Assembly: GCA_963804565.1 (NCBI GenBank)
Contig: CAWDQV010000001.1
Coordinates: 1,045,365 to 1,109,364 of the forward strand
Length of the DNA: 64,000 nt
Direction of reading: 5' to 3'
From: Candidatus Dormiibacterota bacterium
GTDB lineage: Bacteria; Chloroflexota; Dormibacteria; Aeolococcales; Bog-877
Of the stretch, positions 2,611-54,498 are shown one piece after another; position 1 is the stretch's first letter, and each line of letters opens with the position of its first letter. The position numbers and the translations under genes are program-made. The notes below the pieces were generated by a model. It had not been told where the DNA came from, searched no databases, and saw only the letters and a list, made by a program, of their open reading frames with translations.

Positions 2611-3573
2611 TCAGCTAGGCTGAGACTCCAGGTGTCCCAGGCAGGCGGCTTGGGCGGCCGACCACCAGGCAACGTTGTCCAGCCGGGCCAGCTCAGCCTC
2701 GGCCGCCTCCTTGGCCACCTGGCGTTCCAGCTCAACCCGGAGCGCCATCCGGCGGAGCGCCGGGCGCAGCTCGTGACGTAGCTCCCGGGACGAACCCTCG
2801 ATCCACTCGGCCAAGACAACCAGGTCGTGAAAGCGCCCCAAAAGGCCCTGCAACTCGCGAAGTTCCTGCAGCACCGTCTGGTGCCCCACATCCAACAGGG
2901 GGGCGAAGAGCTCGATCCGGTAGCGCAACTTGCGAATCTCGCTCCGCCTGCGGTGGAGATCGGCCTCCGTGCGGGCAGCTCGCCGAGCCCGTTTGAACAA
3001 GCGGGGCAACTGCCGATGAGCGAGCGCCACCCCGGAAGGGGTGGAGATGAACTTCAGGAAGTCGGGGGGCCGAGCTGCCCGCTGGTAGCGACGGAAGGCC
3101 CCGGCGGCGAGAGCGACATGTCGGAGCTCGCCGATCTCGGCGGCGGTGTTGTCCGCAAGGGTTCGCCGCGCCTCCATCTCCAGGCCCCTGAGTCCAGGCC
3201 TGATCACGTGGGAGGAGTCGGAGACCACCGAGCCGACCCGGCCCCGCGCGGTCCGAGGATCGTCACTCCGGTCGCGGGAGACAGCGACCGGCCCCAGCAC
3301 CTCGTCCAACAACTCCAACCGCACCTCGGCGTCGCGCAGAGCACCCAACTCCTTCTCGGCGCGGCGCAGCTGCCGCTGCCATTTGTCGGGCCGTCTCAGG
3401 CAGGCGGCGAATCCCACCGCGGCAGCACGTAGCCGGCGCAGGGCAACCCGGGCATCGTGGGAAGCCTGGGCATCGCTGGCCAGAGGCAGGCGGGCCAGCG
3501 CCCAGCGAAATTTCTCCGCCCGTTCATCGATGGTGGCGACCGCAAGCTCCCGGCTATCCACCGCCTCAGCCAA
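2611..3573 (-). CDS. CHAD domain-containing protein
   Basis: 320-aa helical protein, rich in Arg, Leu and conserved His (e.g. SHDARVALRRLRAA). The CHAD domain is associated with polyphosphate. It overlaps the upstream ppx gene by 8 nt, suggesting co-translation. Confidence 0.65.
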   Translation of the reverse strand: MAEAVDSRELAVATIDERAEKFRWALARLPLASDAQASHDARVALRRLRAAAVGFAACLRRPDKWQRQLRRAEKELGALRDAEVRLELLDEVLGPVAVSRDRSDDPRTARGRVGSVVSDSSHVIRPGLRGLEMEARRTLADNTAAEIGELRHVALAAGAFRRYQRAARPPDFLKFISTPSGVALAHRQLPRLFKRARRAARTEADLHRRRSEIRKLRYRIELFAPLLDVGHQTVLQELRELQGLLGRFHDLVVLAEWIEGSSRELRHELRPALRRMALRVELERQVAKEAAEAELARLDNVAWWSAAQAACLGHLESQPS

Positions 3574-4585
3574 CTTGGGCCGGAAGCGGAACGATAGCCT
3601 CTTCCTCCTCCTCCACCGAGTCGGAGGCGCGCCGCTGCCACCAACGCTCCTGAGCGGCGGCGAGTGCCGCGATCATGCCGTCCCGGAGGCCGCGCTCCGA
3701 GCTCCGTACCCAGCTCAGGTGGAGCAGGTCCATCATCTGGGCGAGAATCAGCGCCCCACCTCGGCAGAGACGGGTTCTCTCCAGGTCGACTCCCGAACGC
3801 TCCGCCAACTCTGTCGCCGAGCGATGGCGGAAGTTCTCGATGATCACCTCCACATCGCGGATTCTCAGCACCGCCCCACGCTGCTTGCCCAGCAGTCTGG
3901 GGAGGTTTGTGATCGTCCCGCCGGTCCCCAGTGCCACCGGGTGGGCTGGTAGCGGGATCAGATCGGGGATCAGCTGGTCCACCCGCCGCTCCATCGCCCT
4001 CCAGTCGTCCTCGCTAGGCGGGTCGGAACTCGCCAGGAGAGCGACCGACCCGGATCCAATTCCAAGTGAACTGTTTCGACAGGTTCCCCCGGCGGGTCCA
4101 GCCGCGATCTGGGCTGAGGCCCCGCCGATGTCCAGGACCACCGTTGGGCGCCCCGGGGAGATGGTCATGGTCGCGCCGTCGAAGGCTAGCTGGGCCTCTA
4201 CCTCGGAAGCGAGGATCCGCACTGGGCCGGCTCCAGCGGCTTGGCTCAACAGCTGGGCGACTTCGGGTCCGTTGGACGCCGAGCGCAGCGCCTGGGTCGC
4301 CCCGATGGCGATTTCCACGACTCCAGCCTCACGGGCGACCTCCACCTGGCGTCGCAGCGAGCGGCTGGCGAGCTCCAGACGCTCGACCCCGATCGATCCT
4401 TGGGAGTTGACGTCCTGGCCGAGCTGTACGAAGTCACGGCGTCGCAAAAGGGGAATTGGCAGTCGGTTCGGCGGGCACCTCGCCACCAACAGGTGAATCG
4501 TGTTGCTCCCGACATCGATGGCGGCGAGGCGAGGCGCTCGCACCACGCGGGAACCTCCCCCGGGGCTGCCGCTGCTCAAGTGCAT
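3566..4585 (-). CDS. ppx: Ppx/GppA family exopolyphosphatase / guanosine pentaphosphate phosphohydrolase
   Basis: 339-aa ORF with the N-terminal ASKHA motif AAIDVGSNTIHLLVA and the later DIGGGS-like motif VLDIGGAS. The true start may be a few codons in. Confidence 0.85.
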   Translation of the reverse strand: MHLSSGSPGGGSRVVRAPRLAAIDVGSNTIHLLVARCPPNRLPIPLLRRRDFVQLGQDVNSQGSIGVERLELASRSLRRQVEVAREAGVVEIAIGATQALRSASNGPEVAQLLSQAAGAGPVRILASEVEAQLAFDGATMTISPGRPTVVLDIGGASAQIAAGPAGGTCRNSSLGIGSGSVALLASSDPPSEDDWRAMERRVDQLIPDLIPLPAHPVALGTGGTITNLPRLLGKQRGAVLRIRDVEVIIENFRHRSATELAERSGVDLERTRLCRGGALILAQMMDLLHLSWVRSSERGLRDGMIAALAAAQERWWQRRASDSVEEEEEAIVPLPAQVG

Positions 4586-4658
4586 CTCCGGGGCGCTGGC
4601 ATCTGGTTAGTTTGCGCCCTTCGAGCAGGGGGGCCGTCTCTATACTTCTGAGATCGGC

Positions 4659-5168
4659 GTGCGCAGTTTCTATCTCGTTCGACACGCGATTGCCCGTGAG
4701 CGGGATGGTTGGCCACAACCGGACCACCTACGTCCCCTTAATGATCTCGGCTGGCGCCAGGCAGTGGTCTTGGCCGAACTACTGGCCGACGCCGGGATCG
4801 AAGCCCACTACAGCAGTCCAACCCTGCGCTGCCGCGACACCCTATTACCGCTGGCGCATGGTGCGGGCCTCCAGGTCCAGGACGACACTCGACTTCTCGA
4901 GGGAGGGCTCGCGCTTGACCAGGAGGGAGCCGAGGTTGAACTGCGGGCGCTGATCAAGGCCTACTTTGCGTCTGGCTCCCGGCGTGTCGCCGCCTGCAGT
5001 CACGGTGACGTGATTCCGCCACTGCTGGAGGCAGCCGGCGCCGCGCCTGGGTCCCGCTGCCCGAAGGGAGGCGTGTGGCGGCTGGACTTGCCGGACGACA
5101 GGGACCGGGTGTCCCAGGCGGTGTACCTCGGCCGTCCGGACCCCGGTGGAGGCTGGGACCAGCGATGA
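4659..5168 (+). CDS. sixA: histidine phosphatase family protein (SixA-like phosphohistidine phosphatase)
   Basis: 169-aa ORF with an N-terminal RHA catalytic motif (LVRHAIAR) and a later SHGDVIPPLL histidine-phosphatase motif. Its stop overlaps the start of the downstream histidine kinase (ATGA). Confidence 0.7.
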   Translation: MRSFYLVRHAIARERDGWPQPDHLRPLNDLGWRQAVVLAELLADAGIEAHYSSPTLRCRDTLLPLAHGAGLQVQDDTRLLEGGLALDQEGAEVELRALIKAYFASGSRRVAACSHGDVIPPLLEAAGAAPGSRCPKGGVWRLDLPDDRDRVSQAVYLGRPDPGGGWDQR

Positions 5169-6262
5169 GCCGGGCCGGCTCATCCGCTCCGCGTACTTCA
5201 ACTCTTCCCGATGGAGCGGACCAGCTGCTCAGCCGTCTGACTGAACTGGGGTCCGACGCAGTGCTGGTGCTGGACCCATCCCGCAAGGTGGTGTGGTCCA
5301 GCACCAACGCTCCGGCCCTGCTCGCGGGGCCCCGTCCGGACGAGGGCGGAGACGCTACGCCGCCATTGGCCGCCAGCTCCCCTCTCGCCCAAGTCCTCGA
5401 CGATCCTCGGGCGGCGGACCTTGTGGCCGAAGTCCTCTCCACCGGATCGGTCGCCCGGGGAGAGTTGCTGCAGAACGAATGGCGGCGGATCCTGAAGGCG
5501 GTGGCCGCTCCTCTACAGCTCTCCGACGGGACCCGTCAGGTGATCCTGATCCTCACCGACATAACTCCAGAGAGGAGGCTCAACCGGGCGCACCAGGAAC
5601 TGATCGCCAACCTGTCGCACGACCTGCGAACGCCCCTTGCCAGCTTGCGCTTGATGGCGGAGACCCTGACCGGCGAGGCCCGAGACGACCGCGACGCGAG
5701 CCAGCTCTTCGCGACCCGGATCGCTGCGGAAGCGGAGCGCCTTCACGCGCTGGTGGAAGGAATTCTCGACCTGAGCCGCCTGGAAGCGGGCGTAGACCGG
5801 GCCGAAATCGAGCAAGTGGACCTGTGGCAGACGGTTTCCGCCACCGTTCAGGAGCTGAGGCCGCAGGCCAAGGAACGGAAGCTCACCCTTACGGTGAGGG
5901 GACATCCCACCGGGGCCCTCGCCGACTCGGCGCGGTTGGGTCGCGCCCTCACCAACGTGGTGGACAACGCCATCAAGTTCACATCCTCCCCTGGCGCGGT
6001 CACGGTGACCGTTGGCGAGACCAGCGGCCGGCCGACGATCTCGGTTCGAGATACCGGCTCGGGCATCCCTGCGAGCAAGCTCCCTCTCATCTTCGATCGC
6101 TTCTACACCGGTGACCGTTCCCGGAGCGGGCGCAGCAGCGGCCTGGGGCTGACCATCGCCAAGCAGGCCGTCGAGCTTCAAGGCGGCGAGATAGAGGTTC
6201 GCAGCTCACCCGGACAGGGAACACTGGTAAGGATCGTTCTGCGCCCTTCATCAACGGGGTGA
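5165..6262 (+). CDS. PAS-domain sensor histidine kinase (PhoR/SenX3-like)
   Basis: H-box ELIANLSHDLRTPLASLRL, N/G-box region TNVVDNAIKF, and G2 box GSGIPASKL...GLGLTIAK. The start was placed at the ATG at 5165 (MSRAGSS...), which overlaps the sixA stop. The longer listed ORF start at 5075 would overlap sixA in another frame. Confidence 0.85.
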   Translation: MSRAGSSAPRTSTLPDGADQLLSRLTELGSDAVLVLDPSRKVVWSSTNAPALLAGPRPDEGGDATPPLAASSPLAQVLDDPRAADLVAEVLSTGSVARGELLQNEWRRILKAVAAPLQLSDGTRQVILILTDITPERRLNRAHQELIANLSHDLRTPLASLRLMAETLTGEARDDRDASQLFATRIAAEAERLHALVEGILDLSRLEAGVDRAEIEQVDLWQTVSATVQELRPQAKERKLTLTVRGHPTGALADSARLGRALTNVVDNAIKFTSSPGAVTVTVGETSGRPTISVRDTGSGIPASKLPLIFDRFYTGDRSRSGRSSGLGLTIAKQAVELQGGEIEVRSSPGQGTLVRIVLRPSSTG

Positions 6263-6291
6263 GGGCGATCTGGGTCGATTAAGATCGGGCC

Positions 6292-6954
6292 GTGGTCACT
6301 GCTCTTTCGGATGACTTCGGCGCCGATCTAGTCGCGCTCCGCGATGGCGTGAGGGTCCTGGGCGGCATGGTGGCCGAAGGCGTCGCCAGCGCGATGACCG
6401 GGCTCGAGGCTCGCGATGGCGACCGACTGCGCGCCGTAGTGGCCGGCGACGCCGCGGTCAACGAGCGGCACCTGCTGGAGCGAGAGCGGGGGCTGGCACT
6501 GCTGGCGGCGCAGCACCCGACCGGGCATGAGCTCAACGAGGTCTTCGGCCTGATGCTGATGACGTCCGAGCTGGAGCGGATGGGCGACCACGCCAAGAGT
6601 TGCGCCCGCTACGCACTGCCCCTGATCGAGCTCAGTTCACGACCCCGGCTGGACACGATCCTGCGCATGGGCGGGTATGTCGAGGAGCAGGTGCGTGACA
6701 TCCTGGTGGCGGTCACCACCAGCGATCATCGCCGAGCCCAGGACATCGCGGCCCGCGACGACCGAATCGACCGCATCTACCACCGAATCTTCGACGAGAT
6801 GGTCGAGACCATGCGGTCCCAGCCCGATTGGGTTTACCCGGGCACCAACCTGATCTTCATCGCCCACAACCTGGAGCGCATCGCCGACCGGGTCACCAAC
6901 ATCGCCGAGGACGTCGTCTTCCTCGCGACCGGTCGCCTGACCGAGCTGGGCTAG
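6292..6954 (+). CDS. phoU: phosphate signalling complex protein PhoU
   Basis: 220-aa two-repeat helical protein with the characteristic PhoU repeats (ELERMGDHAKSCARY and NLERIADRVTNIAEDVVF). Confidence 0.9.
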   Translation: MVTALSDDFGADLVALRDGVRVLGGMVAEGVASAMTGLEARDGDRLRAVVAGDAAVNERHLLERERGLALLAAQHPTGHELNEVFGLMLMTSELERMGDHAKSCARYALPLIELSSRPRLDTILRMGGYVEEQVRDILVAVTTSDHRRAQDIAARDDRIDRIYHRIFDEMVETMRSQPDWVYPGTNLIFIAHNLERIADRVTNIAEDVVFLATGRLTELG

Positions 6955-7695
6955 ATGGCGGAGGTCGCGGCTCCCGCAGGTTCGGGCCGGAGGGTCCTCC
7001 TGGTGGAGGACGACGAGGCGGTCCGGATGACCTTGCGCTACAACCTGGCGGCGAGCGGATATGTGGTTCTCGAGGCGGCCAGTGGAACCAAGGGCCTGGA
7101 GCTTGCTCGCACCCGGGCGCCCGATCTGGTTGTGCTTGACCTGATGCTGCCCGAGCTGACCGGCGAGGAGGTCTGCCGGATCCTGCGCAAGGAATCTGAC
7201 GTTCCGATACTGATGCTCACCGCCCGGGGCTCCGAGGGTGAGAAGGTGCAGGGACTGGCCCTCGGCGCCGACGACTACATGACCAAGCCGTTTGGGGTCA
7301 AGGAGTTCGTCGCCCGAGTGGAGGCACTGATCCGCCGGGCAGAGCGTCCCCCGCGGCCATCCACCCGCCCCGAGCGTGTCCAGCTTGGAGACTTCGTCCT
7401 GGATGCCTCGGCCCGGCGCGTGGTGATCGCGGACCAGGAGGTGAAGATGAGCCCCCGGGAGTTCAACCTGCTCTTCTATCTGCTGGAGCACGCAGGCAAG
7501 GTGCACAGCCGTGAGGCGCTGCTGCGCTCGGTGTGGGGAGCCGACTTCCACGGCGACAACAAGACCGTGGCGGTACACATCCGATGGCTTCGCGAGAAGT
7601 TCGAGAACTTCCCCACCATGCCTTTCCGCATCAGCACCGTCTTCGGGGTCGGCTACCGCGTCGACCTGGCTCCCGGGATCACCGCCGAGAGGTGA
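6955..7695 (+). CDS. OmpR/PhoB-family DNA-binding response regulator (PhoB/RegX3-like)
   Basis: Receiver domain (LLVEDDEAV...DLVVLDLMLP...ADDYMTKPF) plus a winged-helix output domain (LTPREFNLLFYLLEHAGKVHSREALL). The start ATG overlaps the phoU stop. Confidence 0.9.
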   Translation: MAEVAAPAGSGRRVLLVEDDEAVRMTLRYNLAASGYVVLEAASGTKGLELARTRAPDLVVLDLMLPELTGEEVCRILRKESDVPILMLTARGSEGEKVQGLALGADDYMTKPFGVKEFVARVEALIRRAERPPRPSTRPERVQLGDFVLDASARRVVIADQEVKMSPREFNLLFYLLEHAGKVHSREALLRSVWGADFHGDNKTVAVHIRWLREKFENFPTMPFRISTVFGVGYRVDLAPGITAER

Positions 7696-7864
7696 CCGGC
7701 GCACCGATGGTGCGATGCCCCACCCCCCTTCGCCCGGAGAGTCGCTGCGGGTCGGGCAGCGGGCCGGTGGTGGCACCTGGAGTAGGCTGCGCCAGATTGG
7801 GGCATGCTGGGGTAGGGGACGTACGCCGTCGGTGGTAGCGTTTGACGTCCACTTGATTTGAGGT

Positions 7865-8527
7865 GTGGTGGCTATGAGTTTCTTCAGCTCCAAGACGACG
7901 ATGCCGGCATCTGAGCGGTCCCTGCCCGGGCGCACCACGGAGATGGCCTTGAGCGGCAAGCACACCGTTCTGGGCAGCAACATCACGCCGCCATTCCCAG
8001 CTGGGCTCGAGCAAGCCATCTTCGGCCTAGGCTGCTTCTGGGGAGCGGAGCGGGACTTCTGGCAGCTGGCGGGGGTCTACACCACCGCGGTTGGCTACAG
8101 CGGCGGGTTGACCCCCAACCCGACCTACCGGGAAGTTTGCTCAGGTCAGACCGGCCACGCGGAGGTGGTGCTGGTGGTGTTCGACCCTGCCAAGGTGTCG
8201 TACCAGCAGCTGCTCAAGACCTTCTGGGAGAGCCACGACCCAACTCAGGGCATGCGCCAAGGGAACGACGTCGGGACACAGTATCGGTCGGTTATCTATT
8301 TCAGCAGCGAGGCGCAGCAACAGAGCGCCGAGGCGTCAAAAGAGCAGTATCAGAAGGCTCTCACCGACGCGAGGCTCGGACAGATCACCACCGAAATCGT
8401 GGGGGCGGGGCCGTTCTACTACGCCGAGGAGTACCACCAGCAGTACCTGGACAAGAACAAGAGCGGGTACTGTGGTGTGGGTGGAACCGGGGTCAGCTGC
8501 CCCGTAGGAATCCTGTCCGCGTCCTGA
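7865..8527 (+). CDS. msrA: peptide methionine sulfoxide reductase MsrA
   Basis: Catalytic motif GLGCFWGAE and the conserved YHQQYL C-terminal region. The start is uncertain (ATG at 7865 or a few codons downstream). Confidence 0.9.
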
Positions 8528-11022: not shown

Positions 11023-11685
11023 GTGCTGGCGTCGGTCCGCCAGGCTGAGAGCCTTCACGGTCGGCCGGAGGGGAGCGTAGCTCTGCTGCCGGTCACCAAG
11101 GGACACCCACCCGAGGTAGCCCGGCACGCGGCCGATCTGGGGCTCACCGAACTGGGAGAGAACTACCTCCAAGAGTGCGTCGCCAAACAGCGCCTTCTCG
11201 TGGACTCGGGGGTGGCCAACGTGCGCTGGCACTTGCTCGGGCACCTGCAGCGCAACAAGGCCCGCCCGGCCGCCCAGCTATTCCACCGGATAGAGAGCGT
11301 CGACAGCTTCGAGGTGGCTGAGCTGCTATCCGGATTCCGGAACGAGACTCATAGGCTCAAGGTTCTCTTGGAGGTCGAGCTGACAGGACTGCCAAAGCGC
11401 ACCGGCTTCCAACCGAGCCGCTTGATGGAAGAGATGCCCAGGCTGCTGCAGCTGGGCGGCATCGAGGTGGAAGGGCTGATGACCGTGGCCGCGCCGGGAA
11501 TGGCGCGTGAGTCCTTCGCCGCCTGCCGGGAGCTGGTCGAGCGGCTGCGCCATCTCAGCGGTCTCGCGCTGCCGATGCTCAGCATGGGCATGAGTGGGGA
11601 CTTCCGCGAGGCCATCGCCGAGGGCAGCACCGAGGTCCGGATCGGCAGTCTGCTTTTCGGCTCCCGGCCCCAGTTGCCCGACTGA
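11023..11685 (+). CDS. yggS: YggS-family pyridoxal-phosphate homeostasis protein
   Basis: LLPVTKGHP (the PLP lysine region), GENYLQE, and WHLLGHLQRNKA motifs. The start codon is GTG. Confidence 0.9.
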   Translation: MLASVRQAESLHGRPEGSVALLPVTKGHPPEVARHAADLGLTELGENYLQECVAKQRLLVDSGVANVRWHLLGHLQRNKARPAAQLFHRIESVDSFEVAELLSGFRNETHRLKVLLEVELTGLPKRTGFQPSRLMEEMPRLLQLGGIEVEGLMTVAAPGMARESFAACRELVERLRHLSGLALPMLSMGMSGDFREAIAEGSTEVRIGSLLFGSRPQLPD

Positions 11686-11699
11686 ACTAGTCCGCTTGC

Positions 11700-13247
11700 C
11701 TACCGCACCAGCACCGTCAGCTCCTGGTAGCCACTGGCACCGTTTGGGTAGGTATTCCCCTGCCCTGGCCGTTGGTAGTTGCCCCGCCCGTCGCGAGCGC
11801 GAACCCGCAGGGTGTAGAACCCGCTGGCCGGTCGCCAGGGGAAACTCCAAAGGGTCCAGGTGTAGGGCGAGAGAGGTGCTCTGATTTCCGCCTTGTTCCA
11901 GTTGCTGCTTCCATCCACGCTGATCTCCACCCGTGAGATTCCCCTGGTTCCGGCATAGGCGACGCCGGTCAAAAGATAAGTGCGTCCGGCGCTCAGGGAA
12001 CTGTTGCCGGAGGGGAAGTCGAACCTGGAGAAGATCTGGGGATAGGCGCCGGCGTTCCAGCCCTGCTGCTCCCAATATCCCAGGTAGGGATGGCCCGAGA
12101 AGCCGATGCTGGAGAGCCATTTGGGGTTCTTCATGCCGTAGTGGTCGACCACCAAGATCCGGGCCGGGAAACCGTGCAGAGCGGTCAGCGGTGCGCCATT
12201 GAGTCTGTCGGCCAGCAGCGTCGTCGGTGCCATCGCCTGGTCCAAGATCAGGCTTTCGGTGTAGCCGTCGACACAGCCGAAAACGACCTGCTCTGTCCCT
12301 GTCGGCACCCCTGCTCGCTGCAGCAGTCGGGACAGTTGGACGCCACGCCAGATGCCCGTGCTGATCAAGGTGCCGCCGATCGGGTTGGAGATGCACTCCA
12401 GAGTCTGGGTTTGGGTCAGGTGAGGCTCCGCGAGCAGGTCCTGGTAGCTGAGCGAATAGGGGTGAAGTCCCCCCACCTGGAGCCGCCAGGTTGCCGCGTC
12501 CACGGAGGGTGGTCCAAAGAGATCCTTGGAGACCACGTAGAAGTCGGCCGTGGGCGTGAGCCCGCTGGGTAGTTGGTCCCCCAGGCCGCCCGGGGAATTG
12601 CCCAGGCGCGGCAGTGGCGGGGAACTGGCGGTGAGCACGTCCAGACCCAGATAGCCGAGGGTGGCGACTCCCAGGATGCCGCCGGCGCCCGCCAGGAAAG
12701 TGCGCCTGGGGAATGTCCCATCGGCCGACCGACTCAGCCGCGCGGGCTGGCTGCCTCCTCGCTGCGGCATCCCCAGAAAGAGTTCGATGAGCCCGGTAAG
12801 GAGGAGCCAGTCCGCCAGGGCGGCGGGGGTGGATGGCACCGAAAGGGATCCTTCCCCGAGCGCGATCAGGGGCAGGGTAAGCACCCAGAGCCCAAGCGCC
12901 GGCAAGAGCCAGCGCACCAATGAGCGCCCTCGGCGAATTGCCGGGGCGGCGGGATAGGGGGCGACCGCCATCCAGCTCCACCCTGCCATCCATCGGCCCA
13001 GGGTGGCGCCCACCAAAATGACGAAGATCGAGGTCCCGAACAGGAGCAGCGGCCGGCCCCTTTCCTGGAGCGCGTCGATCAGCGTGCCGAAGACGCTTCC
13101 TGGGAGAAGCAGCGCCATCCCGTCCCCGATCACCTCACTGAGAAACGGCACGCCGAAGGTGATCCGCACCAAGAGCGTGGCACCCAGGGTGAGTCCCGCC
13201 GCGCAAGCCCCCAACAAGGCGCCGTTGGGCTGGCGTGGCTTGGTCAC
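11700..13247 (-). CDS. sulfite oxidase-family molybdopterin oxidoreductase with an N-terminal 4-TM membrane domain and an internal twin-arginine motif
   Basis: 515 aa. Residues about 1-165 form four hydrophobic helices. Then comes PRRTFLAGAGGILGVATLGYLG (an RRxFL Tat-like motif plus h-region). After that is a Moco-binding domain (LECISNPIGG...GVQLSRLL...HGFPARILVVDHYGMKNPKWL) and a C-terminal Mo-co dimerisation (Ig-like) domain. Confidence 0.75.
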   Translation of the reverse strand: MTKPRQPNGALLGACAAGLTLGATLLVRITFGVPFLSEVIGDGMALLLPGSVFGTLIDALQERGRPLLLFGTSIFVILVGATLGRWMAGWSWMAVAPYPAAPAIRRGRSLVRWLLPALGLWVLTLPLIALGEGSLSVPSTPAALADWLLLTGLIELFLGMPQRGGSQPARLSRSADGTFPRRTFLAGAGGILGVATLGYLGLDVLTASSPPLPRLGNSPGGLGDQLPSGLTPTADFYVVSKDLFGPPSVDAATWRLQVGGLHPYSLSYQDLLAEPHLTQTQTLECISNPIGGTLISTGIWRGVQLSRLLQRAGVPTGTEQVVFGCVDGYTESLILDQAMAPTTLLADRLNGAPLTALHGFPARILVVDHYGMKNPKWLSSIGFSGHPYLGYWEQQGWNAGAYPQIFSRFDFPSGNSSLSAGRTYLLTGVAYAGTRGISRVEISVDGSSNWNKAEIRAPLSPYTWTLWSFPWRPASGFYTLRVRARDGRGNYQRPGQGNTYPNGASGYQELTVLVR

Positions 13248-48211: not shown

Positions 48212-49027
48212 GTGAGCCAGTACGCGACCATCGACAACGACGCTGGCAGCTTGAGCGTGTTTGGAGCGCCACTGGGCCTGGCGGCCGCCAAGCTGTTGGT
48301 TATCGACGACGATCCCGCCATGCTGCGGTTGGTGGAGTTGATCGCTGCCGAGAACGGCTACGACGTCGTGAGCGCGACCACCGGCGCGGCCGGGCTTCGC
48401 CTGGTGATGGAGACGGAACCGGACTTGGTTCTGCTTGACCTGTTGCTGCCCGACATGAGTGGCGTCGAAGTCTGCCGGCGACTTCGAGCGGCCGGGGTAA
48501 AGTCGACCGTTCTGATGATCAGCTGCCTCCACGATCCGGAGGACGTTGTCGTGGGCCTCGAAGTCGGAGCTGACGACTACATGCGCAAACCGTTTGAGGT
48601 CCGCGAACTGGTCGCTCGAATCAACGCTCGCTTGCGCCGGGCGCAGCTCGCACGTGAAGCCAACGGCATTGAGCGCCTCCACTTTCCTGGGCTCACCATC
48701 GACATGGGTCGGCACGAGGTTCGGCGTGATGGCAGGCCGGTCGCGCTCACCCCGACAGAGTTCAACATTCTGGTTGCCCTGGCGCGACAGGCAGGCGCGG
48801 TGGTCCCCCGACCTCAGCTAATCGCAGAGGTCTGGCGTAACCGCGACCCCTACCGTGTCCGGTCGCTGGACGCTCACCTCTACCGTCTTCGTCGCAAGAT
48901 CCAGCCAAGGAACGACGGGGCACACTATCTGCACGCGGTCATCGGCGCTGGCTACCGCTTCGAATACCAAGCGCCCCGCGCAGAAGCCCAGACGCAGCGG
49001 ATTCCCTACCTGCGGCTAGCGCACTAG
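48212..49027 (+). CDS. OmpR-family response regulator (orphan; no adjacent kinase)
   Basis: Receiver domain (LLVIDDDPAML...DLVLLDLLLPDMSG...ADDYMRKPF) plus a winged-helix domain (LTPTEFNILVALARQAGAVVPRPQL). The start may be downstream of 48212. Confidence 0.85.
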   Translation: MSQYATIDNDAGSLSVFGAPLGLAAAKLLVIDDDPAMLRLVELIAAENGYDVVSATTGAAGLRLVMETEPDLVLLDLLLPDMSGVEVCRRLRAAGVKSTVLMISCLHDPEDVVVGLEVGADDYMRKPFEVRELVARINARLRRAQLAREANGIERLHFPGLTIDMGRHEVRRDGRPVALTPTEFNILVALARQAGAVVPRPQLIAEVWRNRDPYRVRSLDAHLYRLRRKIQPRNDGAHYLHAVIGAGYRFEYQAPRAEAQTQRIPYLRLAH

Positions 49028-50373
49028 GGATAGATCCCCCGGGCCTGCGCGGCTCGAGCGACCCGACCGACTGCGATCAGGTAAGCGGCCTCGCGAAGTG
49101 AAACCTTGTGGCGCGCGTGGTACGCCCAGACCTGTTCGCTAGCTCGCAACATCGCGCGCTCCAATTGGGTATTGATCTCCTTCTCGTCCCAGAAGAACGA
49201 TTGGAGGTCTTGAACCCATTCGAAATACGACACCGTGACTCCGCCGGCGTTGGCGAGAATGTCCGGGACGACGAGGATCCCGTCCTCGGCAAGAACCGCT
49301 TCAGCTGCGGGAGTGATCGGGCCGTTGGCTCCCTCAGCAACGATGCGAGCCCGCACCGCGTTGGCGTTCGTGCTGTTGATGGTCGACTCCACCGAAGCCG
49401 GAACCAGGACGGTAACCGGCAGACTGAGAAGTTCCGCCCGCGTGATCGGCTCTCCCGGAACGTTGGCGTCCGCCATCCGACCGCCCGCCAGCTTGACCCT
49501 TTCGAGGCTTGCTACGTCCAAGCCACTGTCGCAGTGCCAGCCTTCGTGGCTGTCAGAGACGGCCACCACCCGGCACCCTTCATCGGCCAACAGTCGCGCG
49601 CAGGTGCGCCCTACATTGCCAAAGCCTTCGACCGCCACGGTGGCTCCATCGAGGGTGAGCCCGGTGTTGCGCAGCGCGTGCACCAAGATAGTCGCCAATC
49701 CTCTTCCGGTTGCCTCAACCCTTCCCACGGATCCGCCCGCTTCGATCGGTTTCCCCGTGACCGAAGCAGTCACCGAGTAGCCCTGGTGCATCGACAAGGT
49801 GTCCATGATCCAGGCCATGACCTGCGGACCGGTACCGATGTCCGGGGCCGGAATGTCACGCTCGGGTCCGAGCAGCATGCTGATTTCCGTAGTGAAGCGT
49901 CGGGTTAGTCGCTCCAATTCGCGGCGGCTCATCCGACGGGGATCCACGCAAACCGCTCCAGCAGCACCGCCGAAGGGCAGCGACATCAAGGCGGCCTTCC
50001 AGCTCATCGTCATCGCCAGTGCCTTGGTCTGGTCCAAGGTGGCGTCGGCCTCATACCGGATGCCACCTTTGGCCGGGCCGCGGGCGATGTTGTGATGGAC
50101 GCGGTTGCCCACAAAGACTTCGACCGTGCCGTCGTCCCGTACAACCGGGAAGTGCACCTGGAAGATCCGTTTGACTTCGCGCAGGACGCTGCGAACATCC
50201 TCGTCAAGGTGCAGCATCTCAGCCGCCTGATCCACGCGGTGCTGGGCGGTGCCGTAAAGGTCTTCGCTTCCCGGCGTCGGAGACGGCGCGATCACGGAGT
50301 CAGTATATGAGTGCGATGATCGGGGTTGGGAAGTCAAATGGCGGCCTGCGACGAGCCGGTAACACTTGCTCAC
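49024..50373 (-). CDS. gdhA: glutamate dehydrogenase (Glu/Leu/Phe/Val dehydrogenase family)
   Basis: 449 aa. Catalytic-lysine region GGIRYEADATLDQTKALAMTMSWKAALMSLPFGGAAGAV and a Rossmann domain (GFGNVGRTCARLLADEGCRVVAVSD). Its stop shares the CTAG tetranucleotide with the convergent response-regulator stop. Confidence 0.9.
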   Translation of the reverse strand: MSKCYRLVAGRHLTSQPRSSHSYTDSVIAPSPTPGSEDLYGTAQHRVDQAAEMLHLDEDVRSVLREVKRIFQVHFPVVRDDGTVEVFVGNRVHHNIARGPAKGGIRYEADATLDQTKALAMTMSWKAALMSLPFGGAAGAVCVDPRRMSRRELERLTRRFTTEISMLLGPERDIPAPDIGTGPQVMAWIMDTLSMHQGYSVTASVTGKPIEAGGSVGRVEATGRGLATILVHALRNTGLTLDGATVAVEGFGNVGRTCARLLADEGCRVVAVSDSHEGWHCDSGLDVASLERVKLAGGRMADANVPGEPITRAELLSLPVTVLVPASVESTINSTNANAVRARIVAEGANGPITPAAEAVLAEDGILVVPDILANAGGVTVSYFEWVQDLQSFFWDEKEINTQLERAMLRASEQVWAYHARHKVSLREAAYLIAVGRVARAAQARGIYP

Positions 50374-52362: not shown

Positions 52363-54498
52363 TCAGGTGCTTACCGGCTCTCCCGCCGTTAGAGCCAGGT
52401 CCAGGAACTCGACGCGGTTGCGGCCATTCCGCTTGGCAGCGTAGAGCGCGCGGTCAGCAAGGTCGAGCAGGTTGCGCGCTCCCTTGGATCCATCGGGGAA
52501 GGTGACACCGCCGATGCTGACTGTTACCTGCACTTCCGTGCCGTCGTCGAGACGGACGGTCATATCTTCGATCGCCGACCGAATCTTGTCCGCGACCACC
52601 TCTGCGTCCACTCGAGAGGTGTTCGCCATCACCACCACGAATTCCTCGCCACCGTAGCGGGCAGCCAGGTCCGACTTGCGGATCGTCTCCACCATCACGC
52701 TGGCGAACTTACGCAGTAGTCGGTCTCCGGCAGGATGTCCGTGCGAGTCGTTGACTAATTTGAAATGGTCCAGGTCGAGCATCAGCACTGAGAGGGGTGA
52801 GCTGGCCCGCTCTGCGACGTTCACCTGCTGATCGAGGTAGCCCACCAAGAATCGGTAGTTGTAAAGGCCGGTCATCTCGTCGGTCGTCGCCTCTCGTTGC
52901 GTCACCGCCAACCGGGTGCTCTTGTCCACCGCGACCACGATCTGATCGGCCACCCCGCGACAAAGGGTGTAGTCCTCATCCACATATGGCGTGCGCTTGT
53001 TGCCGACTATGAGCAGTCCCAGGTCGTGATCTTCAGAGCGCATCGGTTCCGCCAGACAGTCCCTGAGCCCGAGCCGCTCCTCTGTGCTGCTGCGCTCGTC
53101 GCTGCCCAGGTGAGTGCGCACGACGAAGCGGGGCTCACGGATCAGGTCGCCGATCAACCCCGGACTGCTCTCCAGATCCGTCCAGGTGGGGACCGGAGCT
53201 GGTATCCCCGCCGAGACCAGATGTCCGCGCGTCATGTGCGACTGAGGCCGCAGCAAGATCAGTGCGATGTCGGCGTCCAGGAGGTCGACCAAGCTCCGCA
53301 GGACTTGGTCAAGTGCTTGGTCGAGTGGAGCGTTGCCGGTGAGTGTCGACGCGATCACCGTCCGTCCGGTCGCTATCAGGAGCTGCCGACGCAGCTGCTT
53401 ACGCACGAGCTCGAAATTCGCCGCGAGCCGTCGGATTTCCTCGGCACCGCCATCCACCGCGACCGGCGCCGCGTAGGCGTCCAAGCCGAGCCGCTGCACT
53501 GCGACGTCGAGCCGTCGCAAGGGTCGGTTGAGGAAATGCTCTACCAAGAGGAAGACTGCGGCCATGCCCAGCAGGAGTACCCCGGCGACCGCGAGCGCCA
53601 GCGGAAGGGCTAGGTCTCCCACGGTCACGCTGATCCCGCCACCCGATTCCAGCACGACCAACGTGGCGACCGGGCGACCGCTGCCAGATCGGAGGGTCGC
53701 TTCCGCGACGGCGAACTGGGTATCCCCGACCGAGCCCTGGCCGGCGCGACCATCTCCCAACTGGGCGGACCGGAGCGAAGTCGGAAGCGCCGCTCCGGCC
53801 GGGTAGGCTACTCCACCGATAATGGTTCGAAGGGCCAGACGGTCACCCACCAGCAGGGCGGTCGAGGAGTGCAGCCCGGCAGAGCCGACCAGCTGCTGGG
53901 CATACGCGAGGACTGACGAGCCGACAGGGGTAAGTACCACTGCGCGACCAACCGCCCTTCCAGCTGCGCTGACGGTTGCGACTCCCTCGCCCCAGAGCAG
54001 GCGAGTCCCACCAAGGAGGTAGCCGCCGCCGCCGCCAGCGGCGCAGGCTGCAGCGTCCGCACTGGGGCCGCTGGCCAGCCGGGTCAGACTGGGTAGGGTC
54101 GAAGTGGTGGCCGGGGCTCTGGCCAGGAGCTGCCCACCGGCGCCCAGTAGGACGAGGACCTGGCCGGGACTTGCGTTGGCCACCGCCGCCTTGGCCAGGG
54201 TTGCCGGGCTCGATCCACCCTGCGAGAACGACTGGGCGGTTGCCGGCTGGCGAGCCACCTCACAGGCGAACCTTTGGGACGCGGTGGCAGTCTGCAGCTG
54301 GAGGAGGCTGCCGGCCAGTCTGGCGGCTCCGAGGCTGGTCTGAGCCTCCTGCTGGGTGCGAGCCTGCTGGGTCTCAACCCAGGCGACGGCTCCCGCGACC
54401 ACGGCGGTCGTCAGCCCGACACCCACCAGAACGAGCGCGAACTGGGCGGTGAAGGACCTTCGTCGAACGCGACGGCGCGAGATGGGTTGGGGGGACAA
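52363..54498 (-). CDS. membrane sensor diguanylate cyclase (2 TM, periplasmic sensor, HAMP, GAF, GGDEF)
   Basis: 711 aa. TM1 near residue 20. The second TM is LALAVAGVLLLGMAAVFLLV. A GAF-like region follows. The C-terminal GGDEF domain has RYGGEEF and the inhibitory-site-like RSDL motif. Confidence 0.85.
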   Translation of the reverse strand: MSPQPISRRRVRRRSFTAQFALVLVGVGLTTAVVAGAVAWVETQQARTQQEAQTSLGAARLAGSLLQLQTATASQRFACEVARQPATAQSFSQGGSSPATLAKAAVANASPGQVLVLLGAGGQLLARAPATTSTLPSLTRLASGPSADAAACAAGGGGGYLLGGTRLLWGEGVATVSAAGRAVGRAVVLTPVGSSVLAYAQQLVGSAGLHSSTALLVGDRLALRTIIGGVAYPAGAALPTSLRSAQLGDGRAGQGSVGDTQFAVAEATLRSGSGRPVATLVVLESGGGISVTVGDLALPLALAVAGVLLLGMAAVFLLVEHFLNRPLRRLDVAVQRLGLDAYAAPVAVDGGAEEIRRLAANFELVRKQLRRQLLIATGRTVIASTLTGNAPLDQALDQVLRSLVDLLDADIALILLRPQSHMTRGHLVSAGIPAPVPTWTDLESSPGLIGDLIREPRFVVRTHLGSDERSSTEERLGLRDCLAEPMRSEDHDLGLLIVGNKRTPYVDEDYTLCRGVADQIVVAVDKSTRLAVTQREATTDEMTGLYNYRFLVGYLDQQVNVAERASSPLSVLMLDLDHFKLVNDSHGHPAGDRLLRKFASVMVETIRKSDLAARYGGEEFVVVMANTSRVDAEVVADKIRSAIEDMTVRLDDGTEVQVTVSIGGVTFPDGSKGARNLLDLADRALYAAKRNGRNRVEFLDLALTAGEPVST

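Follow-up and report, generated by a model that had tools for sequence, protein, structure and literature searches.

Extrinsic phosphatases that act on sensor kinases at their phospho-histidine are, to our knowledge, almost unheard of, the C-terminal domain (CTD) of MutT1 being the sole kinase-directed case we know of. This domain dephosphorylates SenX3, PhoR, MtrB, MprB, DosS and PrrB, the histidine of its RHG motif being required (PMC12407098, 2025), and MutT1 binds SenX3, lowers the level of phosphorylated RegX3 (RegX3~P) and lowers the activity of a SenX3-RegX3-dependent promoter, all on the basis of in-vitro and overexpression data (PMC12407098). The present analysis deals with a six-gene locus of a Candidatus Dormiibacterota bacterium (NCBI GenBank assembly GCA_963804565.1, contig CAWDQV010000001.1), where the gene for a stand-alone histidine phosphatase, related to this domain by sequence and predicted fold, overlaps the gene for a soluble Pho-like sensor kinase; all coordinates refer to the window, namely the whole 64,000-nucleotide stretch of DNA analysed (forward-strand positions 1,045,365 to 1,109,364 of the contig). 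The six genes would constitute a Dormibacterota phosphate-homeostasis locus of two divergent units, with the phosphatase acting as an extra brake on the kinase, a reading to which we give a probability of roughly 0.4. What sets the locus apart is that the phosphatase is paired with a soluble Pho-like kinase in a conserved, translationally coupled arrangement, the other parts of the locus being of known kinds. The literature on phosphate regulation in Dormibacterota, an uncultured soil phylum, yielded no dedicated study.

The MutT1 proteins (Rv2985 and MSMEG MutT1; PDB 5gg5, 5xd5 and 9cxx) belong to the same family as the phosphatases associated with ppk1 and have in common with the locus phosphatase the R-H...R...E catalytic core. 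MutT1 joins an N-terminal Nudix to a C-terminal histidine phosphatase domain and acts globally, whereas the locus phosphatase is a single domain, encoded in and coupled to a two-component operon. At the SHGD position it keeps a histidine, the aligned MutT1 chains reading TQGK there, and it differs from the MutT1 CTD by clade-specific insertions or deletions and a C-terminal tail. SixA of E. coli (TIGR00249; PDB 1ujb) resembles the locus phosphatase in being a small His_Phos_1 protein (about 160 amino acids, aa) of one domain, whose catalytic R-H dyad lies near the N-terminus at residues 8-9. The validated in-vivo target of SixA is, however, NPr of PTS-Ntr, and the sole kinase target reported for it is an HPt domain rather than a DHp histidine (PMC6282199). 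An earlier note on this DNA had started from the premise that SixA is classically a phosphatase of HPt domains; this looks doubtful, the in-vivo role of SixA towards ArcB being unclear (PMC6282199).

Regarding the signalling genes, the locus shares with the PhoR-PhoB, SenX3-RegX3 and PnpS-PnpR systems and their PhoU a kinase with PAS, HisKA and HATPase_c domains, an OmpR-family regulator and a PhoU above the family cut-off. It departs from them in a kinase that is soluble and without membrane anchor, in the position of phoU between the kinase and regulator genes rather than beside pstSCAB, and in the extra phosphatase gene at the head of the operon. Regarding the polyphosphate genes, the ones that lie downstream of ppk in the most cases encode PPX/GppA, Nudix/MutT and histidine phosphatases, while in Streptomyces the operon ppk-pptA(CHAD)-nudix is in the PhoR/PhoP regulon (PMC8003754). 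Clusters of this and of the ppk1-mutT1 type likewise group polyphosphate genes, namely those for CHAD, Ppx and histidine phosphatase, with the Pho two-component system, which in Streptomyces also regulates them (PMC8003754). In contrast with the ppk operons, the window locus has neither ppk1 nor a Nudix gene, its CHAD gene follows ppx instead of ppk1, and its phosphatase gene has moved to the head of a signalling operon. Besides, a His_Phos_1 gene, gpm1, is presumably found upstream of senX3 in mycobacteria, which the literature check did not confirm.

The phosphatase, the kinase and their coupling

Gene identities were assigned with Pfam, at gathering thresholds, and with NCBIfam, at equivalog cut-offs. 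All six genes lie where the earlier note had placed them and exceed the Pfam gathering thresholds, and the families CHAD, Ppx-GppA, His_Phos_1 and PhoU, for which it had suggested hidden Markov model searches, are each matched above threshold. They fall into two divergent sets, ppx and the CHAD gene on the minus strand, the phosphatase, kinase, phoU and regulator genes on the plus strand (Table 1).

The phosphatase, which passes the His_Phos_1 threshold of 21.7 bits, had been described as SixA-type. It is a histidine phosphatase with a fold similar to that of SixA, but the match to the SixA model TIGR00249 is confined to residues 4-68 and reaches 21.1 bits (E = 2.3e-4) against a cut-off of 74.5, on which ground SixA membership was rejected; the MutT1 CTD is closer. 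The best NCBIfam match is NF052459, the mycobacterial MutT1 family, over model positions 134-287 (1.1e-14); with 54.3 bits for a cut-off of 475 and no Nudix domain, the protein is not itself a MutT1. In a phmmer search of the PDB, the closest solved relative by sequence is M. smegmatis MutT1 5gg5 (2.7e-9), followed by 9cxx, which is Rv2985 of M. tuberculosis according to the Foldseek listing, and by Bifidobacterium 3fjy, with the putative SixA structure 2rfl reaching only E = 0.058. An AlphaFold2 model obtained with 18 homologues (predicted local distance difference test score, pLDDT, 94.2; predicted template modelling score, pTM, 0.90) retrieved His_Phos_1 proteins exclusively as top Foldseek matches, the best being MutT1 CTDs, with a query-based TM-score (TMq) of up to 0.80 at 28% identity, against 0.65-0.68 for SixA structures. 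The phosphatase is thus, by sequence and predicted fold, a stand-alone relative of the mycobacterial MutT1 CTD; its homologues are labelled 'SixA phosphatase family protein' in the source databases. The term MutT1-C-terminal-domain-like subgroup is used as a working definition for proteins nearest to the MutT1 CTD with relatives in ppk1/CHAD/Nudix/ppx operons, both of which hold for the phosphatase.

The catalytic residues, on which the earlier note had made its proposal depend, are present on alignment, namely R8-H9, R57, E81 and H115, the motif being RHA (A10) rather than RHG. In the 18-sequence family alignment A1, R57, E81 and H115 never vary, and R8, H9 and A10 hardly do (A10 occurring in at least 90%).

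The overlap of the phosphatase stop with the kinase start reported by the earlier note was found as described, the two codons sharing ATGA at 5165-5168. The kinase frame of the window stays open upstream as far as a GTG at 5075, this codon and ATG 5165 being the only in-frame start candidates. The choice between them comes from the comparison of 17 distinct loci (19 sequences minus the near-identical copies in two pairs, the window being the 17th in the junction and tree analyses). In 15 of the 17, an NTG codon that overlaps the phosphatase TGA could serve as kinase start, and in four loci (L009, L013, L014 and L016) this overlap codon is the sole start that the frame offers, on which ground the upstream GTG 5075 was rejected. 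The comparison thus backs a kinase start at the overlap, not upstream, as the earlier note had allowed it might be. In the exceptions, the kinase start lies at +20 (L003/L004) or +3 (L019), that is still at most 20 nucleotides (nt) from the phosphatase stop. A Shine-Dalgarno-like UGGGA is found 6-7 nt before the kinase start and comes from the last phosphatase codons, TGG GA[C/G] (W-D/E). As judged from these sequence features, the translational coupling of phosphatase and kinase is real.

The kinase scores 25.1 bits for PAS_4 (cut-off 23.1), 59.9 for HisKA and 104.8 for HATPase_c, and its top two matches among 88 NCBIfam families are PnpS (230.8 bits, cut-off 400) and PhoR (190.8 bits, the PhoR_proteo cut-off being 334.2). 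The H-box reads HDLRT, with H152 as candidate phospho-acceptor. The kinase is considered soluble because no transmembrane segment is found with either candidate start (maximal 19-residue Kyte-Doolittle mean of 1.03); hydrophobic segments are likewise absent from all six locus proteins. PhoU exceeds the TIGR02135 cut-off (149.9 against 130.25 bits), with PF01895 matched in two stretches. The regulator has the receiver and winged-helix architecture, its best match among 104 NCBIfam families being PhoB TIGR02154 (224.1 bits, cut-off 296.2). By its linkage to PhoU, the kinase can be assigned a putative phosphate-sensing role, as a PhoR/PnpS/SenX3-like protein.

On the minus strand, the pairing of ppx with the CHAD gene seen by the earlier note is confirmed by an overlap of 8 nt, the CHAD TTG start at 3573 overlapping the ppx stop, and the same 8-nt overlap is called in L001, L003, L005 and L006. 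The CHAD match covers residues 31-258, far above the threshold of 25.6 bits. The Ppx/GppA protein passes PF02541 but scores 150.7 bits with TIGR03706 (exo_poly_only) for a cut-off of 307, and only 69-108 bits against the long Ppx adjoining ppk1 in other loci. The pair is translationally coupled and probably devoted to polyphosphate mobilisation or (p)ppGpp handling.

The kinase-linked clade and the wider family

The nearest homologues of the phosphatase, with up to 89% identity, are found in metagenome-assembled genomes (MAGs) of Candidatus Dormibacterota. Gene tables of loci at 78%, 54%, 48% and 44% phosphatase identity read CHAD <- Ppx <- -> His_Phos -> kinase -> PhoU -> regulator. With the 9-sequence alignment A2, one genome of each GTDB species was scanned, giving 80 loci, which were then searched by tblastn with the proteins of the window; all 12 scan loci from Dormibacterota at 55% identity or more (L009-L020) keep the layout, as far as contig and tblastn matches reach, and the six loci L001-L006, two of them near-duplicates, likewise keep it. 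In total, the six-gene order is conserved in all 17 distinct loci, from 89% down to 44% phosphatase identity, and phoU stands between kinase and regulator genes in every related locus extending far enough. Because it recurs in all of them, the arrangement is not a chance juxtaposition. The adjacency of phosphatase and kinase genes, which the earlier note had left open as possibly unique to this genome, is thus conserved across a Dormibacterota clade but specific to it.

In a neighbour-joining tree, the kinase-linked phosphatases form one clade with a bootstrap of 180/200, and of 169/200 once more ppk1-linked Dormibacterota sequences are added. In alignment A1, the loop that precedes CPKGGVW is shorter in this clade, the helix that precedes CSHGD is longer, and the tail reads YLGRPDPxxGGWDxR; indels and a C-terminal tail of the clade's own are consistent with a changed partner. 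The ppk1-linked Dormibacterota sequences are among the nearest to the clade, the sister group not being settled by the neighbour-joining trees. The simplest history would be that a polyphosphate-operon phosphatase was duplicated or relocated in a Dormibacterota ancestor and thereby recruited as first gene of a kinase-PhoU-regulator operon, the divergent partnership with ppx being kept. The ppk1-CHAD-phosphatase arrangement is present in other Dormibacterota MAGs, none of which could be tied to a genome with a kinase-linked locus by the PPK1 search and two context look-ups. A kinase-linked locus (L006) and a ppk1-linked one (L007) have the same Fer4_22, cNMP_binding, NAD_binding_1 and Oxidored_q6 genes, of NiFe-hydrogenase type, within a few kb 3' (13487-16507 in L006, 11301-15857 in L007), neighbours that may reflect positional homology of the two kinds of locus.

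Beyond this clade, the more distant Dormibacterota homologues lie in operons of the form Ppx(long) <- -> PPK1 -> (CHAD) -> His_Phos (L007, L008, L089/L090 and L093/L094), with an overlap between the phosphatase start and the stop of the gene before it. Among 70 classified loci that are not kinase-linked, 26 have ppk1 within 5 kb, and 14 of these 26 have kinase, regulator or PhoU matches within 6 kb. The intervening genes of the ppk1 operons encode CYTH-CHAD and Nudix proteins according to Pfam, and ppk1-(CYTH)CHAD-Nudix-His_Phos(-ppx) operons are found in Dormibacterota, Chloroflexota, Acidimicrobiia and Myxococcota. Two larger phosphate islands, from Dormibacterota and Chloroflexota, carry ppk1, CYTH-CHAD, Nudix and histidine phosphatase genes with PitA and PhoU_div on the opposite strand, PitA being a PHO4 match; these are followed in L086 (3968-13343) by PhoU, a regulator-like gene and a phosphoesterase, and in L082 (3966-13566) by a soluble 365-aa kinase, PstS and PstC. 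The earlier note had presented its six genes as a supercluster of polyphosphate metabolism and phosphate signalling. The cluster is real and all six genes are phosphate-related; with Pho genes near polyphosphate operons in other phyla and in the literature, such clustering is a recurring and known theme.

Gene fusions extend this picture. Many Acidimicrobiia have Nudix-phosphatase fusions, that is the MutT1 architecture, and fusions of the phosphatase with Ppx/GppA were found in Myxococcota (L026, L041, P0172 and P0186). In these Ppx/GppA fusions, the histidine phosphatase is N-terminal and Ppx/GppA C-terminal, and the genes at 7998-9422 of L026 and 2789-4234 of L041 lie in Myxococcota MAGs downstream of ppk1-CHAD. 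By their sequences, the His_Phos and Ppx/GppA fusions are a Rosetta-stone link of the phosphatase family to Ppx. A profile search of 1.84 billion representatives gave 28,800 matches, with 742 relatives at E <= 1e-30; the best 150 of the 28,800 include about 15 of Nudix-fusion length and two Ppx fusions.

A possible extra brake on the kinase and its alternatives

The plus-strand operon would be transcribed from the conserved TATACT as a -10 element, giving a short-leader or leaderless mRNA, and phosphatase and kinase would be co-translated. As a brake, the phosphatase would take the phosphoryl group off H152 of the kinase, as the MutT1 CTD does with SenX3~P and PhoR~P, and would act as an extrinsic reset, over and above PhoU and the phosphatase activity that the kinase itself would have towards the regulator through its HDxxT motif. 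The idea of an extra brake, put forward by the earlier note, is plausible because SenX3 and PhoR are both substrates of the closest characterised relative; as a principle it can no longer be called unrecognised, the MutT1 CTD being a precedent (PMC12407098). Should it hold, the operon would be evolutionary evidence for the mechanism, independent of the MutT1 data. A soluble phosphatase and a soluble kinase also make a simple protein pair for direct testing. The broader generalisation, whereby stand-alone relatives of the MutT1 CTD would be dedicated phosphohistidine phosphatases of Pho-type kinases, providing feedback from Pho-regulated polyphosphate operons (ppk1-CHAD-Nudix-phosphatase) elsewhere and hard-wired into the kinase operon in Dormibacterota, seems to us rather unlikely. 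If it held, the phosphate switch would have three off-controls, namely PhoU, the phosphatase activity of the kinase towards the regulator and an extrinsic phosphatase of the phosphorylated kinase, and the locus would provide, apart from mycobacterial biochemistry, a first indication from genomic context that histidine kinases have cognate extrinsic phosphohistidine phosphatases.

A number of observations weigh against such a brake. The MutT1 CTD is also active on small molecules, crystal structures with 8-oxo-dGDP being among the Foldseek matches. A kinase gene directly 3' of the phosphatase gene was found in none of the 68 more distant scan loci (34-49% identity), nor in L007 or L008, and no phosphatase-kinase fusion was seen among the 120 word-index matches listed or the best 150 of the 28,800 profile matches, the partners hard-wired to the family as a whole being Nudix and Ppx/GppA, as fusions, and ppk1/CHAD, in operons. 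Neither kinase nor regulator reaches any Pho equivalog cut-off, and the 64-kb window has no pst genes. As to the coupling, the overlap alone is weak evidence because an NTG before a TGA stop is expected by chance in three cases out of four, and the conserved tail of the phosphatase may in part reflect a nucleotide-level constraint, that of the embedded ribosome-binding site, rather than a protein feature.

The strongest rival is a phosphatase that would be a polyphosphate or nucleotide enzyme, a Pho-regulated effector heading an autoregulated operon without touching the kinase, since the family is mainly a component of polyphosphate operons, with fusions to Nudix and Ppx but, among the matches listed, none to a kinase. 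Its place beside ppx-CHAD would then come from joint induction with these genes under phosphate stress. Its activity could then be the conversion of nucleoside diphosphates (NDP) or 8-oxo-GDP to the monophosphates (NMP) and phosphate (Pi), a step on (p)ppGpp or polyphosphate ends together with Ppx/GppA, or the removal of the PPK1 phospho-histidine intermediate. In agreement with this, the frequent vicinity of ppk1 and the operons spread over four phyla or classes add to the fusions just mentioned, the divergent geometry of ppx and phosphatase operon is common to the ppk1-linked L007, L008 and L093, and the literature places PPX/GppA, Nudix/MutT and histidine phosphatases next to ppk, with a Pho-regulated ppk-CHAD-nudix operon in Streptomyces (PMC8003754). 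What it leaves unexplained is a separate clade kept upstream of, and coupled to, a kinase gene down to 44% identity, while the closest characterised relative acts on SenX3 and PhoR (PMC12407098). We regard a purely metabolic role as only slightly less likely than the brake; the two roles are moreover not mutually exclusive, and even a phosphatase working on polyphosphate or nucleotides would leave a locus documenting the tight wiring of polyphosphate turnover to Pho signalling.

The phosphatase might also work mainly by binding the kinase, blocking autophosphorylation or transfer with catalysis as a minor contribution, or have a different phospho-histidine protein as its target in place of the kinase, for instance NDK or a carrier like those of the phosphotransferase system (PTS). 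The catalytically dead MutT1 H170A/H161A still cut the SenX3-to-RegX3 phosphotransfer and inhibited autophosphorylation (PMC12407098), translational coupling favours the 1:1 production typical of binding partners, and SixA of E. coli works on NPr, with no action on ArcB detectable in vivo (PMC6282199). Yet the strict conservation of the catalytic residues in the kinase-linked clade indicates that catalysis is under selection, and neither the locus nor its relatives showed PTS or ndk genes. We regard both variants as improbable. Improbable too in our view is a historical accident, whereby a rearranged polyphosphate operon came to lie beside a two-component operon in a Dormibacterota ancestor and shares nothing but transcription with it. 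The arrangement is indeed limited to one clade of one phylum, and the order of alkZ, msrA and the pair of ABC transporter genes found 3' of most related loci is conserved too, which shows a generally stable synteny in the group, that pair being lost in the window. Against this, the plus-strand packing of -4, +29 and 0 nt survives to 44% identity while flanking genes such as the ABC pair and alkZ are variably present, all six genes are phosphate-related, and similar clusters of polyphosphate and Pho genes recur independently in other phyla. A phosphatase braking its kinase thus remains the reading we prefer.

Layout, control region and surroundings of the locus

The features of the locus are collected in Table 1. 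The plus-strand values just given are those of the successive phosphatase/kinase, kinase/phoU and phoU/regulator junctions. At the last of these, the earlier note had reported an overlap of the regulator start with the phoU stop, which is not so, the genes abutting as TAG|ATG with the phoU TAG at 6952-6954 and the regulator ATG at 6955. The G+C content of the region is about 67-69%. The locus is flanked by an alkZ-like gene (1303-2565) and by msrA (7865-8527), as identified with Pfam.

Table 1. Position, strand and supporting match of each feature of the locus in the window.
Feature	Coordinates	Strand	Basis
CHAD-domain protein, putatively polyphosphate-binding ('phosin' type), 320 aa, TTG start	2611-3573	-	PF05235, 92.6 bits
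Short-form Ppx/GppA-family phosphatase, 339 aa	3566-4585	-	PF02541, 106.3 bits
Divergent intergenic control region, 73 bp	4586-4658	.	14-locus alignment
Stand-alone MutT1-C-terminal-domain-like histidine phosphatase, 169 aa, GTG start	4659-5168	+	PF00300, 55 bits
Soluble PAS-HisKA-HATPase_c sensor kinase, PhoR/PnpS-like, 365 aa, ATG start	5165-6262	+	Pfam PAS_4 + HisKA + HATPase_c
PhoU, 220 aa, between kinase and regulator genes	6292-6954	+	PF01895 twice; TIGR02135
OmpR/PhoB-type response regulator, 246 aa	6955-7695	+	PF00072 + PF00486 (Response_reg + Trans_reg_C)
Site without the ABC-ATPase and ABC-2 permease pair	7696-7778	.	blastn against L009; gene tables of related loci

The intergenic region between ppx and the phosphatase gene has the extent that the earlier note had given. 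In the 14-locus alignment A3, three blocks are conserved, namely CTGGCA(C/T) at 4596-4602 (CTGGCAT in the window), TAGTTTGCGCC at 4608-4618 and a -10-like TATACT at 4642-4647, which ends 11 nt before the phosphatase GTG at 4659. This last block suggests a putative -10 element and an operon mRNA with a short leader or none, since a gap of 11 nt leaves scant room for a Shine-Dalgarno sequence. Within the window as a whole, TAGTTTGCGCC, an 11-mer, shows no enrichment, with 13 matches for 9.3 expected, and a consensus sigma-70 promoter scan gave no match. The Pho-box direct repeats (spacing of about 11 bp) that the earlier note had suggested looking for here were not found, 4540-4700 being devoid of direct repeats and the conserved blocks not being repeats of one another; a site for the cognate regulator may still be present in another form. 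A sigma-54 -24/-12 element (TGGCAT...TTGC) was also considered and rejected, its spacing being N9 and not N5. The only terminator-like match lies inside the regulator gene, and the tRNA and Rfam scans of the window returned no matches.

Downstream, an ABC-ATPase and ABC-2 permease pair follows the regulator gene in most related loci (L001, L003, L005, L006 and L009 among them). In blastn of the window against L009, similarity ends at 7695 and resumes at 7779, the pair being absent from the window. From the position of msrA, it is apparently missing from L016, which lies on chromosome OY969577.1, and from L018 as well, which suggests repeated loss. Besides, two of the related loci, L012 (DATKSI010000007.1) and L015 (DATKSI010000034.1), come from a single assembly, which bears the label 'Candidatus Micrarchaeaceae archaeon SMAG_U14050'. 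A Dormibacterota-type copy of the locus is found in each (83% and 89% identity, respectively), so that the bin looks mislabelled or mixed.

Elsewhere in the window, a second OmpR-family regulator, 35% identical to that of the locus, is encoded at 48212-49027 (+), with no adjacent kinase by tblastn and with its 3' end overlapping a convergent glutamate-dehydrogenase gene (49024-50373). A 711-aa GAF and GGDEF protein of diguanylate-cyclase type (52363-54498, -) has the length of a PPK1 but is unrelated to it, there being no PPK1 tblastn match. An open reading frame of 555 aa (11326-12993, -) without Pfam match at E <= 1e-5 overlaps another long one (11700-13247). Finally, the minus strand carries at 24804-47255 a long run of ordinary housekeeping genes for purine biosynthesis, including those for AICARFT/IMPCHase, SAICAR synthetase, adenylosuccinate lyase, GAR synthetase and GMP synthase, together with AIR synthase-type, amidophosphoribosyltransferase-type, FGAM synthase-type and IMPDH-like genes, interleaved with genes for a biotin carboxylase and a pyruvate-carboxylase-type subunit.

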